Origin: Staphylococcus phage S-CoN_Ph3
Sequence record: OR354826.1
DNA: 64,000 nucleotides
Direction: 5' to 3' (one strand)
This document shows, piece by piece, positions 202 to 62,982 of the stretch (within the stretch, counting starts at the first letter, position 1; every line of letters starts with the position of its first letter). Under the pieces are notes generated by a model. The model worked only from the letters and a program-made list of their open reading frames with translations, had not been told where the DNA came from and did no database searches. Both the position numbers and the translations under genes were made by a program.

Positions 202-230
202 ATTATATAATAGAAACAAGGGGGTGTCAA
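202..230 (-). promoter_or_regulatory. sigma-A type promoter, TTGACA-N17-TATAAT on minus strand
   Basis: minus strand reads TTGACA (230..225) + 17 nt + TATAAT (207..202); -35 lies in loop of hairpin AAGGGG/CCCCTT 218-240 which also follows the stop of gene 249-461. Confidence 0.6.
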
Positions 231-248
231 CCCCTTTTCTCAAATTAA

Positions 249-461
249 TTAAATAAAATCTGTTTTAATTCCTTTAAGTTCAAATCCGTATCTCTCTGCT
301 GCTTCTTTAGCTTCTGGTAAATCATCAAATATCTTAGCTTCGTTTATATCCTTAGTAGTAATTACTATAGTGTCTGTCACTTCTGAACCATACACCTTAA
401 CCTCTTCTTCGAAGAATCTCTCATTTTCCATAATCACATAATAAACTTTCCCTATCTCCAT
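249..461 (-). CDS. hypothetical protein (70 aa)
   Basis: ORF in tightly packed minus-strand operon. Confidence 0.5.
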   Translation of the reverse strand: MEIGKVYYVIMENERFFEEEVKVYGSEVTDTIVITTKDINEAKIFDDLPEAKEAAERYGFELKGIKTDFI

Positions 462-471
462 TATATCACTC

Positions 472-798
472 CTAATAAAAATCTACAATGAGAAAGAAAT
501 AATAATTATCATTAAATACAACTTTTTTTCTATATTCTATTGCTTCTACTAGATAATCATTTCTACTAATATCTCTTAACTCTCTATAAAGCAATCTAAC
601 GCTTTCCCTATCTAAATATAGCTCTCCACTATCTACACGTACGCCATACTTAAATAGTAATTCTTTTACAACGTCATACATGGAATCAGTCTCTTTATAT
701 AACTCTTGAAATATCCATTGATAAGCGTAATTATCATTATATAATAGATATGCTATATCATCTTTCATTCCAGAATGACACCCATAAACACAAAACAT
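472..798 (-). CDS. hypothetical protein (108 aa)
   Basis: ORF, same operon. Confidence 0.5.
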   Translation of the reverse strand: MFCVYGCHSGMKDDIAYLLYNDNYAYQWIFQELYKETDSMYDVVKELLFKYGVRVDSGELYLDRESVRLLYRELRDISRNDYLVEAIEYRKKVVFNDNYYFFLIVDFY

Positions 799-809
799 AT
801 TAACACTCC

Positions 810-1025
810 TTATATATTAAACAAAAAAGCCATTCCTATTAAAGAAGACAATATTCCTAAAGTGGAAAATATAATAGCTTCTATCTTGTTGTTAGAAACA
901 TATACCATTATTTCAGAAAATATAATAAATGCTAACATAATAAACACAATTAGCGTTTCCATATAAAACAACCTCCTAAAAAACTTCCTATACAGTATTA
1001 TACCATATAAGAAGTCATTTGTCAA
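810..1025 (-). CDS. small hydrophobic membrane protein (71 aa)
   Basis: ORF with two hydrophobic segments. Confidence 0.45.
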   Translation of the reverse strand: MTNDFLYGIILYRKFFRRLFYMETLIVFIMLAFIIFSEIMVYVSNNKIEAIIFSTLGILSSLIGMAFLFNI

Positions 1026-1031
1026 TAAATA

Positions 1032-1547
1032 TTATTGTAATGTATCTTTAAAGTTATCCATATTATCTTCAATAAATTCTATTTTTTCATATAGAACTTC
1101 AAAATCTATTTCCATTTGTTTCAGTAGAAACATATCAGTTACAAATGCTTTTTTAAGTGACATTGAATGGACTAATTCTATTACATTTTTAGAAAATACA
1201 TTAACTTTTTTCTCATATTTGAGAACTTTTTTATTAAAATCTCTTATTTTACTTTCTTCTAAGTAATTTTCAATAGTACGATTAGGTAAATCACTATCAA
1301 ATTCTAAATCGAAAATCTGATTCATCATGTTACTATATTTATAGTTAATATTTTTGCTTAATGTTATAAGTTCAGTGAATTTATTACTAAATAATTTCAT
1401 TTTATTATTATATTCTTCTTCGTCTATAATCTCCAATCCTTTAAAATTAACTAAATGAACCATAATCTCTTTAATAACATCTGTATAAAGTGCCATTTTT
1501 TCATTATAGAAATCAAATTTGAGAACATTTTCTAGTTCCAGTTTCAT
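1032..1547 (-). CDS. hypothetical protein (171 aa)
   Basis: ORF with RBS. Confidence 0.55.
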   Translation of the reverse strand: MKLELENVLKFDFYNEKMALYTDVIKEIMVHLVNFKGLEIIDEEEYNNKMKLFSNKFTELITLSKNINYKYSNMMNQIFDLEFDSDLPNRTIENYLEESKIRDFNKKVLKYEKKVNVFSKNVIELVHSMSLKKAFVTDMFLLKQMEIDFEVLYEKIEFIEDNMDNFKDTLQ

Positions 1548-1558
1548 ACAAGCACTCC

Positions 1559-1750
1559 TTATTTAAAACTATTTACATCAATAGGAATAATTTGATGCAT
1601 TGCTAAGAAATTTTGTTTTTCAACAAATGCTTTAGCTGATTTTTCTGTATCAAATACAAAGAATTTTTGCTGGTTTGTATTAGTTAATCCAATAACTTGG
1701 AACACTCTACCTTTTCTTTTCATTGCTTTTTTTGTTTCTTCTAAGTTCAT
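1559..1750 (-). CDS. hypothetical protein (63 aa)
   Basis: ORF. Confidence 0.45.
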   Translation of the reverse strand: MNLEETKKAMKRKGRVFQVIGLTNTNQQKFFVFDTEKSAKAFVEKQNFLAMHQIIPIDVNSFK

Positions 1751-60844: not shown

Positions 60845-60845
60845 T

Positions 60846-61187
60846 TTATTGTTCCTCCATTTCTTTTAAAACTTCTATAAACTCTTTATTAATCTTATCA
60901 GAATCAACAATCTGTTTCATTTTTTCTTTTATGAAACCATTTATTTCATCCTTGTTATTAATTTCACTGTCTACGATTGGTTCATAAATGTTTGGTTTTG
61001 AAGTTATATCTATAATATCTTCTTGTGAAACTATATGTTTTACCCCTTTTACTTTATTTGTTACATGCCACATCTTAAACATTAAATAATGATTTACTTT
61101 ATTATCTCTCATGCCGTATGATAATTGAATTTCAAATAATTCGTTTTCATATTCTCTTGTAAATTCTATTTGTTTTATTAAACTCAT
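60846..61187 (-). CDS. hypothetical protein (113 aa; start at second ATG with GGAGGAAGT RBS)
   Basis: ORF directly upstream of the polymerase gene. Confidence 0.45.
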   Translation of the reverse strand: MSLIKQIEFTREYENELFEIQLSYGMRDNKVNHYLMFKMWHVTNKVKGVKHIVSQEDIIDITSKPNIYEPIVDSEINNKDEINGFIKEKMKQIVDSDKINKEFIEVLKEMEEQ

Positions 61188-61221
61188 AATACTTCCTCCC
61201 ATTAAAAAACTTGTTAAGTAT

Positions 61222-61250
61222 ATTATAGCATACTCAACAAGTTCTGTAAA
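61222..61250 (-). promoter_or_regulatory. promoter TTTACA-N17-TATAAT (minus strand) overlapped by 13-bp inverted repeat ACTTGTTAAGTAT/ATACTCAACAAGT (61209-61242)
   Basis: candidate operator spanning the -10 of the polymerase operon promoter. Confidence 0.5.
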
Positions 61251-61252
61251 GT

Positions 61253-61837
61253 CTAATTTAATTTTTTATTTAAAATAATTGTTATCAACGTAGCAATACC
61301 CATCATAACAAGGTTTACTGATTCTGTAATAATAGCACTTAAAGGCGCATGAGTTACACTCATATTAATAATCATAATACCTAATCCTGCAGCAAACCCT
61401 ATATATAATAAGTAATTAACGCCTTGTGCTGTCTTTTTATATATTAAGTGAATTATTTGTTCTAAATATGCAAAAGCAATTAGAAATGATGACCAATGTT
61501 GAACTATGTCATTAGGAACCCAATAAACAAGTATACTTGCTGCAAAAGAAAACATCATCAAATACACCCATATACCATAGAAACTATGTTTTTTATAAGC
61601 AACAATCAATAATATCAAAAATGCAATTGCAGCATTAATACATTGTGGTACTATTACATACCACACAGCACTTTCCTCAATAAGTGTTGAAGCAGTTATA
61701 GCAGTTGCTAATGCAATAGATAGCCAAAATATTTTAGAAACTCCTTTAATCTGTTTATGAGCAATTAATGATTTTATCTGTGGAAAATATGATAAAAGAA
61801 AAATAATGGAAACAAACACCCCAAGAATAACTTGCAT
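61253..61837 (-). CDS. polytopic membrane protein (194 aa; PnuC-like transporter possible)
   Basis: 6-7 hydrophobic helices with several Trp. Confidence 0.4.
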   Translation of the reverse strand: MQVILGVFVSIIFLLSYFPQIKSLIAHKQIKGVSKIFWLSIALATAITASTLIEESAVWYVIVPQCINAAIAFLILLIVAYKKHSFYGIWVYLMMFSFAASILVYWVPNDIVQHWSSFLIAFAYLEQIIHLIYKKTAQGVNYLLYIGFAAGLGIMIINMSVTHAPLSAIITESVNLVMMGIATLITIILNKKLN

Positions 61838-61899
61838 ACAACATTCCTCCTATTTATAAATTTAGGGCAAGTAAAAACCTGCCCTTTAAAAGTTAAGTT

Positions 61900-62919
61900 T
61901 TATTCTTTGATTAATTTTAATCCATCTGCAGCATGAACCCAACCTTTTGAGAATACACCGAATTTATCATACCCTGCTAAATAAACGTATTCAACATCTT
62001 CTTTGCCGTGACCAGTAACAATACCGTAACCACCTTCTTCTATCCCACCAAATGATTCTAGGACTTCCACAAGGTCTCCTTGTTCAAATTTTCTTTCTCT
62101 TTTTACATATGTTTCTTCTGACGTCGGAGTTAGTTTGGCATTTTTTAATTGTTCTTCAAATTCACTAGTTGTCAAAACAACAGGAAGTGTATCTTCTTTA
62201 GCATCAATACGTACTATATGCTCATCAATTTTATTAGTTAATTCAACATATTCATTATGAACAAAATCTCCAAATCGGTCTTCTATTTTACCTTCAATAA
62301 AGTAAGTCCCGTTTTTTAAATCTTCAATTTTTAATTCAGATTTATTATTGCCGTTTTTATATTCCTCTTCTGTTAAAAATTCCACATCTTTAATCGTATC
62401 AAAACGTTTATAAACAGAAATATCGTCATCTTCATCAGCGCTATAAAAAATATAATATTCATCTGAAATTCTTCTAAGTTCTATTTCTCCATATAAAACA
62501 TCATCTGAATTTACGTCATCTACAATTTTTTCTACATAATATTTTTTCCCAACAATCATGTCTTCATTGTAGAGTTCGTCATCTTCATAAAACTCAATTT
62601 CATTAATTTTGTCAACATCATCAAAATAAACTAATACCATATTTCTAGTCTTTTCCTCAATGAATAAGTAGCTAATTTCATCAATACTTAGTCTTACAGC
62701 TCCAGAAACCTCATCAGAGTCATCTCTTAATGGTTTAATATAATAAATCTTATCATGTTCTAAGTTTAAAGGATTCTTTTCCTGTTCTACATTATCTTCT
62801 TTTTTATTTACAAGCTCATCTTGGTCGTCTTCTTTAATTTTTCGTAAAAAATCACATACTTCTTCAATAGTACCTTCTGTCGTAACTTCATTTCCATTAA
62901 TAGTTGTTGTAATTTTCAT
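61900..62919 (-). CDS. hypothetical protein (339 aa)
   Basis: ORF with AAGGAG RBS. Confidence 0.5.
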   Translation of the reverse strand: MKITTTINGNEVTTEGTIEEVCDFLRKIKEDDQDELVNKKEDNVEQEKNPLNLEHDKIYYIKPLRDDSDEVSGAVRLSIDEISYLFIEEKTRNMVLVYFDDVDKINEIEFYEDDELYNEDMIVGKKYYVEKIVDDVNSDDVLYGEIELRRISDEYYIFYSADEDDDISVYKRFDTIKDVEFLTEEEYKNGNNKSELKIEDLKNGTYFIEGKIEDRFGDFVHNEYVELTNKIDEHIVRIDAKEDTLPVVLTTSEFEEQLKNAKLTPTSEETYVKRERKFEQGDLVEVLESFGGIEEGGYGIVTGHGKEDVEYVYLAGYDKFGVFSKGWVHAADGLKLIKE

Positions 62920-62953
62920 AATAATTATTCTCCTTTTTTATTAATCTAATATT

Positions 62954-62982
62954 ATTATATCGTATGACTAATGATTTGTCAA
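62954..62982 (-). promoter_or_regulatory. sigma-A type promoter TTGACA-N17-TATAAT (minus strand)
   Basis: perfect consensus; no flanking hairpin noted here. Confidence 0.6.

Follow-up and report, generated by a model that had tools for sequence, protein, structure and literature searches.

Predicted early and middle promoters of the Staphylococcus phage S-CoN_Ph3 that share DNA with candidate intrinsic terminators

This study analysed a 64,000-nucleotide stretch of Staphylococcus phage S-CoN_Ph3 (OR354826.1), referred to below as the window, in which near-consensus promoters of the host sigma-A type recur on the minus strand at the junctions between genes and are in part overlapped by GC-rich hairpins. 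The window represents Sextaecvirus, a large staphylococcal siphovirus of the SEP9/6ec group. The minus-strand genes form two blocks (1-6100 and 43700-64000), which contain small open reading frames (ORFs) and genes for DNA polymerase, RNA ligase and nucleotide metabolism, and the plus-strand block (6200-43700) contains the packaging, head, tail, lysis and recombinase genes. SEP9 was colinear with the window, and its cos junction corresponded to window 6123/6124. The GC content of the window ranged from 24 to 38%, and GC-rich hairpins are therefore conspicuous in it.

The part of the window from 44000 to 64000 was 99.95-100% identical to S-CoN_Ph13 (OR354836.1) and 99.8% identical to S-CoN_Ph11. 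OR354836.1 could not supply coordinates for the left end of the window, because its first approximately 19 kb are an inverted duplicate of the structural region. This opening portion (1-19000), in which the sigma-factor genes are duplicated as well, looks like an assembly artefact, and the left end of the window does not share its layout.

Pattern scans revealed nine exact matches to TTGACA-N16-19-TATAAT, all of them on the minus strand; 0.35 matches were expected, and none of 100 shuffled sequences reached nine. Matches at 11 of the 12 positions were near background on both strands (13 minus, 10 plus), so that the strand specificity is limited to the perfect class. When the perfect sites were taken together with TG-extended sites matching at 10-11 of 12 positions, approximately 16 credible minus-strand promoters were obtained, and the arrangement characteristic of housekeeping promoters (16-18 bp between TTGACA and TATAAT) was found in nine perfect sites and about seven further sites with 10-11 matching positions, whether TG-extended or not. 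All promoters were on the same strand as the adjacent genes, and in most of them a ribosome-binding site (RBS) and a start codon followed 20-45 nt past the -10; promoters 5946 and 44955 had neither in their vicinity. A previous interpretation of this DNA made from its letters alone (the sequence-only reading) had listed nine such sites, six with perfect hexamers. All nine were recovered, with the end of site 21771 moved from 21799 to 21798 (spacer 16), and the six perfect pairs were confirmed at 202-230, 4567-4595, 21771-21798, 45584-45613, 52569-52597 and 62954-62982. The other three listed sites match at 11 of 12 positions (54134, TATAGT; 56578, TATACT; 61222, TTTACA), and three perfect sites had been overlooked (997-1025, 4201-4228 and 5946-5975). 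The statement that these promoters drive all minus-strand genes was too strong, given about 16 promoters for roughly 50 minus-strand genes in operons. The accompanying statement that the plus strand has no comparable promoters holds for the sigma-A consensus but not for the strand as a whole, which has units of its own consisting of a hairpin and TATACATA.

The six hairpins that had been named all proved real. At 202, 4567, 45584, 52569, 54134 and 56578, the best single hairpin overlapping the -35 had a predicted free energy (dG) of -10.3 to -13.9 kcal/mol; at the other ten promoters, the values were -1.4 to -4.3 in nine and intermediate (-7.4) at 5946. A hairpin of -10 or below overlapping the -35 was thus present at six of 16 promoters, compared with 2% of 300 random minus-strand positions and one of 30 other TTGACA copies. 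When the whole unit (-50 to +45) was considered, nine of the 16 promoters contained a hairpin with a dG of -10 or below, compared with 7.9% of 140 random 124-nt windows (binomial P ~8e-7). Each unit fold was also compared with 200 dinucleotide shuffles, which yielded z-scores from -2.1 (unit 202) to -6.5 at dG values of -11 to -18 kcal/mol. A scan tool flagged the promoter hairpins as terminators, with a GC stem followed by a T-rich tail; a separate and broader terminator scan, noisy inside genes, served solely to locate hairpins near promoters. A T-rich tail directly followed the stem in eight of the nine units (202, 997, 4567, 45584, 52569, 54134, 61222 and the upstream terminator of 62954). 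The stable GC-containing stem-loop expected of an intrinsic terminator was present in the sense RNA, as judged from the dG values, z-scores, G·U pairs and covariation. All of the hairpin-promoter units were located between tandem ORFs on the same strand.

The hairpins occupied four ARRANGEMENTS relative to the promoter, designated classes A, B, C and D. In class A (202, 4567, 45584, 52569 and 54134), the -35 hexamer either lies within the loop or has its own T/A pair as the closing pair, and the spacer consists of the 3' arm and the T-rich tail. The stem ends 5-11 nt before the -10 and 17-23 nt before the predicted start site; termination 7-9 nt past the stem would therefore place the 3' end of the upstream RNA about 8-16 nt before the next start site. 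The TG extension was present in one of five class A promoters and in 10 of the 11 others, and all promoters lacking TG have perfect hexamers (manual counts). The scarcity of TG in class A is explained by the T-tract, which fills that position. In class B (56578), the hairpin occupies the spacer, drawing on the -35 for ACA and on the extended -10 for TGT, and no clean T-tract follows. Class C (997 and 61222) comprises hairpins absent from the sequence-only reading, with dG values of -15.6 and -16.8. Their stems, of 16-17 bp, begin in the spacer and reach about +9, and the loop contains the -10; a TTTTT run comes next, and then the RBS. Transcription is predicted to start within the 3' arm, and the promoter's own transcript cannot terminate there because both arms are present only in read-through RNA. 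Class D (62954) is a classical terminator that ends 36 nt before the -10.

The hairpins had been described as sitting immediately after the stop codon of the upstream gene. This is correct in outline but requires refinement, because the distance differs among the sites. The TGA stop of the upstream gene lies inside the -35 itself (T-TGA-CA) on the minus strand at 4592-4594 (unit 4567) and 52594-52596 (unit 52569), and the 5' arm of the hairpin is consequently coding sequence in both units. At 45584, the first base of the stem is shared with the TAG stop codon, and the stop codon lies upstream by 8 nt at 56578, 13 nt at 202 and 45 nt at 54134.

We then compared the units with those of relatives drawn from the GenBank phage collection. 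The units were nearly invariant among close relatives, and pairing was retained where the sequence varied. The spacer stem of 56578 is GAGA/TCTC in the window; the same stem with another loop was found in PT1-4, PG-2021_4 and RQ1, GATGA/TCATC in 6ec, BE02, PG46, Ph14 and CF9, GGCA/TGTC in SEP9, and CCCT/AGGG as the corresponding stem of a paralogous unit of PT1-4. Among five stem versions from 56578 and one paralogue, 100% of the alignment cells were paired and four of seven pairs had changes on both sides; none of 500 shuffles matched this result, and slid controls gave 36-60% pairing. For the class C hairpin of 61222, compared with PT1-4 and RQ1, 96.7% of the cells were paired and two pairs had changed on both sides. 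S-CoN_Ph17 was excluded from the covariation alignments because its heavily fragmented annotation suggests many sequencing errors.

The unit 54134 of BE02 carries a C-to-T change that yields a G·U pair. G·U pairs accounted for four of 16 pairs at 997 and three of 16 at 61222, and occurred also in the SEP9 and BE02 variants. Through these pairs, the sense (minus-strand) RNA was more stable than the complementary strand in seven of nine units (-15.6 versus -6.2 at 997, -16.8 versus -11.1 at 61222, and -12.9 versus -5.1 in the SEP9 variant). Taken together, the covarying stems and the sense-strand G·U pairs point to RNA in the sense transcript as the selected structure, rather than a DNA cruciform or a protein-binding palindrome. 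The architecture was present in SEP9 as well, and distant members of the genus (from S. gallinarum, M. sciuri, S. pseudintermedius and S. saprophyticus hosts) kept it with different stems. Units 52569 and 54134 were also present in the myovirus phiIPLA-C1C. A pattern scan of IMG/VR for the 56578-type unit (TTGACAG-N13-CTGTTATACTATTATTAG) returned no matches.

Two published systems resemble these units. Fletcher et al. (2026; Grainger; bioRxiv 10.64898/2026.08.19.745784) determined the ends of RNAs from A. baumannii, E. coli and B. subtilis and reported many terminators whose ends fall approximately 10 bp short of a start site; in these, the DNA of the stem-loop doubles as the -35, and the T-tract directly adjoins the -10. 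In their study, mutations in the stem or the T-tract lowered both promoter and terminator activity, and an active coupled promoter reduced read-through, an effect that was lost when 35 bp or more were inserted between the promoter and the terminator. The same spacing was predicted in S. aureus, and recycling of the polymerase was speculated upon. The class A units have the same geometry, with the -35 within the stem-loop DNA and the T-tract abutting the -10. A terminator counts as promoter-coupled when its 3' end is within 35 bp upstream of a start site on the same strand (mode approximately 10 bp), and the 8-16 nt predicted for class A falls inside this range. Both sets are located between tandem genes, and Staphylococcus aureus, for which such terminators are predicted, is a close relative of the hosts of this phage. 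The systems differ in that Fletcher et al. cover chromosomes and leave phages unmentioned, and in that approximately 11% of the A. baumannii terminators are coupled (200/1,810), whereas eight of nine credible early-strand terminator hairpins of the window overlap a promoter; the ninth, at 62954, stops 36 nt short of the next -10. The modal type of Fletcher et al. is neither class B nor class C, the latter having its -10 in the loop and its 3' end past the start site.

The second system consists of the promoter-early stem-loop (PeSL) cassettes of the T4-type phages RB49 and phi1, which contain strong sigma-70 early promoters (Arbiol et al. 2010; PMC2839356). Their stem-loops, often GGGG...CCCC, take one of five positions (over the -35, within the spacer, over the -10, just upstream or just downstream); promoter and terminator activities were demonstrated, and module shuffling and insulation of small early genes were proposed. 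As in the PeSLs, a strong early promoter for the host sigma factor and a stem-loop lie between the upstream stop codon and the downstream Shine-Dalgarno (SD) sequence and ATG, and classes A (-35), B (spacer), C (-10) and D (upstream) match the positional classes of the PeSLs. PeSL copies are conserved over approximately 100 bp, which permits homologous recombination; they flank variable ORFan modules at the edges of insertions and deletions and give rise to encapsidated mini-circles. The units of the window differ in belonging to a siphovirus of a Gram-positive host and in forming no conserved repeat family of approximately 100 bp; only the hexamers, the AT-rich spacer and the SD sequence are common to them (best pair 67% over 39 nt). 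The evidence for recombination is weak here, consisting of a breakpoint at 45591 inside unit 45584, another at 54084-54100 beside 54134, and five to six breakpoint clusters near units compared with about 2.3 expected.

The existing annotation already contains parts of this pattern. The GenBank records of SEP9 (KF929199) and 6ec (KJ804259) list the orthologues of 52569 and 54134 as ARNold terminators and those of 21771 and 61222 as promoters, and in the SEP9 record one promoter (66873-66897) and one terminator (66873-66904) overlap in their coordinates. In contrast to the present description, these records enter promoters and terminators separately and do not flag the overlap as a feature. According to the article on the Kayvirus vB_SauM-515A1 (PMC7698491), its early promoters have the form TTGACW-17-(TRTGN)-TATANT and use the host sigma factor; a term search of that article gave no promoter/terminator overlap, in contrast to the window, and one promoter directly after a terminator.

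On these grounds, we consider that the minus-strand units are probably (at a rough probability of 0.75) early or middle host sigma-A promoters fused to the intrinsic terminators of the preceding transcription units. This explanation, which the sequence-only reading had put forward, agrees with every sequence-level test that was run, namely terminator form, enrichment, covariation and G·U pairing. The minus-strand blocks would contain early and middle genes dependent on the host RNA polymerase, with about 16 near-consensus sigma-A promoters at gene junctions, and at most internal junctions the promoter bases would double as an intrinsic terminator for the upstream transcript. In class A, the -35 would form the hairpin loop and the T-tract the AT-rich spacer, so that the upstream RNA is predicted to end about 8-16 nt before the next start site. 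In class C, with the -10 in the loop and the T-run past the start site, the hairpin would stop read-through RNA and spare the promoter's own transcript. In class B, the spacer would be occupied by the hairpin, and in class D the terminator would lie just upstream of the promoter. The outcome would be a string of insulated and very compact transcription units. We infer from the sequence that the promoters fire with host sigma-A and that the hairpins terminate; by analogy with the coupled terminators, a promoter-bound polymerase may raise the efficiency of termination, or polymerase may be recycled. Such inferences about initiation and termination are reasonable because the systems of Fletcher et al. 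and Arbiol et al. share the geometry.

Several observations weigh against this explanation. The covariation derives from few independent lineages, with four to six distinct sequences. Unit 202 is the weakest, and nine of its 200 shuffles fold equally well. No T-tract was found at 56578 or at 65366 and 54154 of SEP9, and these units may not terminate at all; elsewhere, T-tracts are interrupted in places (TTGTTTCT, TTTTAGTTT). The class A hairpins are short (5-11 bp, dG -10 to -14), and their efficiency may be modest. Seven of the 16 promoters are without a strong hairpin. At 4567 and 52569, a closely trailing ribosome could melt the coding 5' arm. Such an arrangement is tolerable only with uncoupling of transcription and translation, as reported for Bacillus subtilis. 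A literature search found no transcript mapping and no RNA 5'- or 3'-end data for Sextaecvirus.

The hairpins might instead be RNA processing or stability elements, such as RNase III-type sites or protective 3' stem-loops similar to those of T7, with the promoter overlap arising from lack of space. Selection on RNA structure would fit processing as well as termination, class B and several units beyond the window have no U-tract, and the late-strand hairpins likewise precede a conserved motif that is not U-rich. Against this stand the T-rich tail straight after the stem in eight of nine window units, which is the signature of intrinsic terminators, and a geometry identical to that of experimentally proven promoter-coupled terminators. 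Moreover, typical RNase III substrates have stems longer than 5-11 bp. We regard processing as an unlikely account of the units, although it may apply to class B and to other units that have no U-tract. It is also rather unlikely that the cassettes were selected mainly as PeSL-like recombination linkers, by which staphylococcal phages would swap modules together with their own terminator and promoter. The RNA-ligase module (45591-48588), which is absent from 6ec, SEP9 and PG46, ends exactly in the spacer/-10 of 45584 and adjoins a promoter-like site (48598-48626) at its other end; the similarity of the window to SEP9 and to phiIPLA-C1C stops at 54084-54100, past the -10 of 54134 and ahead of its start codon; and a myovirus shares two of the units. 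However, no repeat family emerged among the units from a direct-repeat search (at most 67% identity between two units, over 39 nt, compared with about 100 bp of conservation in PeSLs), and only five or six of about 35 breakpoint clusters lay within approximately 60 nt of a unit, compared with about 2.3 expected (manual count). Breakpoints occur at gene boundaries regardless, and linkers would leave the covariation of the stems unexplained.

The two remaining explanations locate the function in the DNA itself. The sequence-only reading had offered, as an alternative, that the hairpins are sites for a phage factor occluding the -35. The palindromes would then be operators for a protein dimer of phage or host origin, or for a factor of the anti-sigma type, and would provide a host-takeover or early-to-middle switch. 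Inverted repeats centred on the -35 do occupy the classic operator position, one terminator palindrome of Fletcher et al. doubles as a LexA site, the phage encodes helix-turn-helix (HTH) proteins including a 168-aa triple-HTH protein annotated as "transcriptional repressor", and four of five class A promoters have no TG extension and therefore depend on the -35. Nevertheless, the stems are unrelated in sequence between sites (GGGG, CTCTCA, AGTCC, ACACCC and GACCCC), and no single factor could therefore recognise them. They vary by compensatory substitution, whereas a protein site would conserve its sequence; their G·U pairs, which exist only in RNA, would be mismatches in duplex DNA; and the T-rich tails follow the stems on the sense strand only. 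A common binding site is not supported, and we judge operators of this kind improbable. Cruciforms, or hairpin promoters extruded from supercoiled DNA as in N4, might instead modulate promoter use. Long palindromes do cover whole promoters at 56578 (46 nt), 997 and 61222, but the DNA and antisense versions are much less stable on account of G·T mismatches (at 997, -6.2 compared with -15.6 kcal/mol), and the promoters are ordinary duplex sigma-A consensus sites; a structure acting in DNA is highly improbable. The fusion of sigma-A promoters with intrinsic terminators remains the explanation that we prefer, and the individual sites are collected in Table 1.

Table 1. Minus-strand promoters and hairpin-promoter units of the window, with the late-motif copies of the plus strand (dG in kcal/mol)
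Feature	Position	Strand	Details
Class A unit	202..241	-	promoter TTGACA-17-TATAAT 202-230; hairpin 213-241 AAGGGG/CCCCTT; spacer-filling tail TTGTTTCTATTA; dG -11.5, z -2.1
Class C unit	982..1025	-	TTGACA-17-(TG)TATAAT 997-1025; 16-bp hairpin 982-1016; TTTTT then RBS; dG -16.5, z -6.1
Perfect promoter, no hairpin	4201..4228	-	spacer 16, TG; upstream ORF stop 4212-4214 in spacer
Class A unit	4567..4606	-	promoter 4567-4595; hairpin 4579-4606 AACTCTCA/TGAGAGTT, -35 in loop; tail TTTTAGTTT; dG -11.4, z -2.65
Outermost promoters by cos	5946..6055	-	5946-5975 perfect, TG; 6025-6055 11/12, spacer 19; weak hairpins only
Late motif NATACATAN	6162, 7324, 8874, 9093, 11325, 11522, 18141, 20804, 21778, 21805, 43708 (to 43716)	+	all intergenic
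Lone perfect promoter in late block	21771..21798	-	spacer 16, TG; would drive 73-aa ORF 21517-21738; no strong hairpin
Candidate internal promoter, no hairpin	44955..44983	-	TTGACT-17-(TG)TATAAT; within end of upstream coding sequence
Class A unit	45584..45624	-	promoter 45584-45613, spacer 18; hairpin AGTCCT/AGGACT 45603-45618; dG -11.3, z -4.5
Promoter, no hairpin	50846..50874	-	TTGACA-17-(TG)TATAGT; inside 3' end of upstream coding sequence
Class A unit	52569..52606	-	promoter 52569-52597 perfect; 11-bp hairpin 52581-52606 AAAACACCCTT/AAGGGGTGTTTT; tail TTTTTTATTA; dG -14.4, z -4.55
Class A unit	54134..54170	-	TTGACA-17-(TG)TATAGT 54134-54162; hairpin GACCCCT/AGGGGTC 54151-54170; tail TTTTTCTATG; dG -12.7, z -2.8
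Class B unit	56571..56616	-	TTGACA-17-(TG)TATACT 56578-56606; spacer hairpin ACAGAGA/TCTCTGT; dG -17, z -6.5
Class C unit	61207..61250	-	TTTACA-17-(TG)TATAAT 61222-61250; 16-17-bp hairpin 61207-61244; TTTTT then RBS; dG -18, z -6.3
Class D unit	62954..63030	-	promoter 62954-62982 perfect; terminator GGTGGA/TCCACC 62996-63023, tail TTTGATTTTT; dG -16.9, z -5.3
Weaker promoter candidate	63500..63529	-	TTGACA-18-(TG)TAAGAT, 10/12; 11 nt past upstream stop; weak hairpin dG -6.8

Among the class A units, the SEP9 copy of 202 is identical apart from one spacer base. The hairpin of 45584 has the loop TGAC and the tail TTTTCTTTTTATTA, and an extended form of it spans 45597-45624; the overlapping TAG is the stop of the RNA ligase gene, and the unit lies at the mosaic breakpoint 45591 relative to 6ec, SEP9 and PG46. 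An ARNold terminator is annotated at the 6ec orthologue of 52569, and the phiIPLA-C1C copy of this unit has a changed loop; the terminator orthologous to that of 54134 is annotated in both 6ec and SEP9. The class B hairpin of 56578 can be extended to a 46-nt palindrome in which AGTAT, upstream of the -35, pairs with the -10.

As regards the promoters without a strong hairpin, 4201 is embedded in the end of the upstream coding sequence, as are 44955 and 50846, and 50846 is conserved in relatives including the myophage phiIPLA-C1C. Approximately 7 kb of early genes (47900-55050) are about 82-94% identical to genes that occur in a different order in the Sepunavirus myophage phiIPLA-C1C and related phages, which indicates an exchange of modules between this siphovirus and myoviruses of the same host. 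The promoters 5946 and 6025 are next to cos and have no upstream transcript to stop. Within 5300-6123, these two strong inward-facing promoters lie within 180 nt of the cos end and are followed by approximately 650 nt with no annotated ORF, a stretch that could be a long leader or a non-coding RNA. The 73-aa ORF at 21517-21738 (minus strand), within the tail module, ends at a very stable bidirectional terminator (21434-21470, dG -22); its promoter (21771-21798) is back-to-back with the late motif at 21805, and the same layout, with an orthologous promoter, ORF and terminators, is annotated in the SEP9 record. In the further part of the S-CoN_Ph13 genome, beyond the window, there are 14 more strong minus-strand promoters, at least six of which have overlapping or abutting hairpins. 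Early promoters at the right end of the genome, likewise beyond the window (L005 25694 and 26460; SEP9 84857-85160), share a conserved upstream AAAAAGTATTGACA, and some of them form inverted repeats with two divergent TTGACA boxes; the right-end region of SEP9 also contains a ATACATAT-rich repetitive tract.

The late block carries a second family of recurrent elements. ATACATA occurred 11 times on its sense strand, always between genes, compared with 1.1 copies expected in 4.7 kb, and no copy was found in 32.9 kb of late coding sequence, for which the models used gave 2.6-7 expected copies. The start codon, if one follows the late motif, is usually located 16-24 nt downstream (43 nt at 6162). 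Five copies (7324, 8874, 18141, 20804 and 43708) are preceded within 0-3 nt by a hairpin with a dG of -7.7 or below, and three further copies are preceded by a weaker hairpin; the stem that follows the capsid gene, for example, is GACGAGAA/TTCTCGTC, and the one that follows the major tail gene is AGCCCC/GGGGCT. The motif is found at the same positions in SEP9, and also in the distant RQ1, in which the stems are different (for example, AGAGAGGA/TCCTCTCT after the capsid gene). Hairpin-free copies are present where a promoter is logically required, namely at 6162, between cos and the first late ORF, and at 21805, between the terminator at 21434-21470 and the tape-measure gene. In addition, a sigma-like protein of the phage (PHROG 5767, E 6e-101), listed as SEP9_098 in SEP9 and as CDS0203-0204 in Ph13, has a C-terminal HTH resembling GerE and region 4 of sigma-70.

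These findings make a -10-only late promoter the likeliest reading of the motif, although we hold this candidate tentatively, at slightly below even odds. Caution is required because one copy (43708) lies at the convergent end of the late block; this copy, together with the avoidance of the motif in coding sequence, would also fit an RNA cleavage or termination signal. The T4 late promoter is TATAAATA, from which TATACATA(T/A) would differ at one of eight positions. In the Kayvirus, as described in the article cited above (PMC7698491), late promoters consist of an extended -10 with no -35 and are attributed to a phage sigma factor, which is the same -10-only pattern as that proposed here for the plus strand. 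The motifs themselves differ, because the Kayvirus late motif given there, TGTTATATTA, was not enriched in the window (29 matches compared with 28 expected), and the candidate here is TATACATA(T/A). It is conceivable, with the balance tilting a little against it, that the whole genome comprises two families of hairpin-promoter cassettes, early sigma-A/terminator fusions and late units of a hairpin and TATACATA(T/A) read by the PHROG 5767 protein.

A search of the whole window with Rfam at gathering thresholds yielded no match at any unit; the matches were limited to a group I intron, a tRNA and S808. The group I intron (RF00028, 95 bits) is in the lysis region at 39958-40158 (plus strand). The tRNA gene (RF00005) is at 11184-11257 (plus strand), and its orthologue is annotated as tRNA-Pro in SEP9 and S-CoN_Ph13. 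The match to "Staphylococcus sRNA 808" (189 bits) is at 42120-42374 (plus strand), within the C-terminal endolysin ORF (41935-42564), and this family was probably built from prophage lysin sequence. Compared with SEP9, the endolysin gene contains an insertion of approximately 985 bp (40738-41723) carrying an HNH ORF (40842-41390), the first 72 nt of which are 86% identical to the HNH gene at 9191. A plus-strand site matching the sigma-A consensus at 11 of 12 positions with TG (40780-40808) precedes this HNH ORF within the insertion. The tape-measure gene region at 25496-26870 (plus strand) contains two arrays, each of four tandem repeats (120 nt and 132 nt; 60-73% identity).

The pattern of hairpins at the minus-strand promoters is real and under selection, and it represents a kind of cassette already described in T4-type phages and in bacteria. 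S-CoN_Ph3 provides a dense phage example of promoters that share DNA with probable terminators, with nine of 16 promoters in 26 kb and four positional variants. If the two-family organisation is true, a single rule, with every internal promoter on a terminator, would apply to both temporal classes of genes, and the genus Sextaecvirus would possess an undescribed type of late promoter. If the late units are promoters, the hairpin and TATACATA would show which genes make up the late regulon and what sequence the phage sigma factor recognises, and these late-strand units are the part that most deserves experiment. The natural parts of approximately 40 bp that would join a terminator to a strong promoter may be usable in staphylococcal genetics, and a predicted map of transcription units is at hand for phages that are considered as therapy against S. 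epidermidis. More generally, the fused units would extend to a Gram-positive siphovirus a principle that has been proposed for bacterial chromosomes and, earlier, for T4-type phages.

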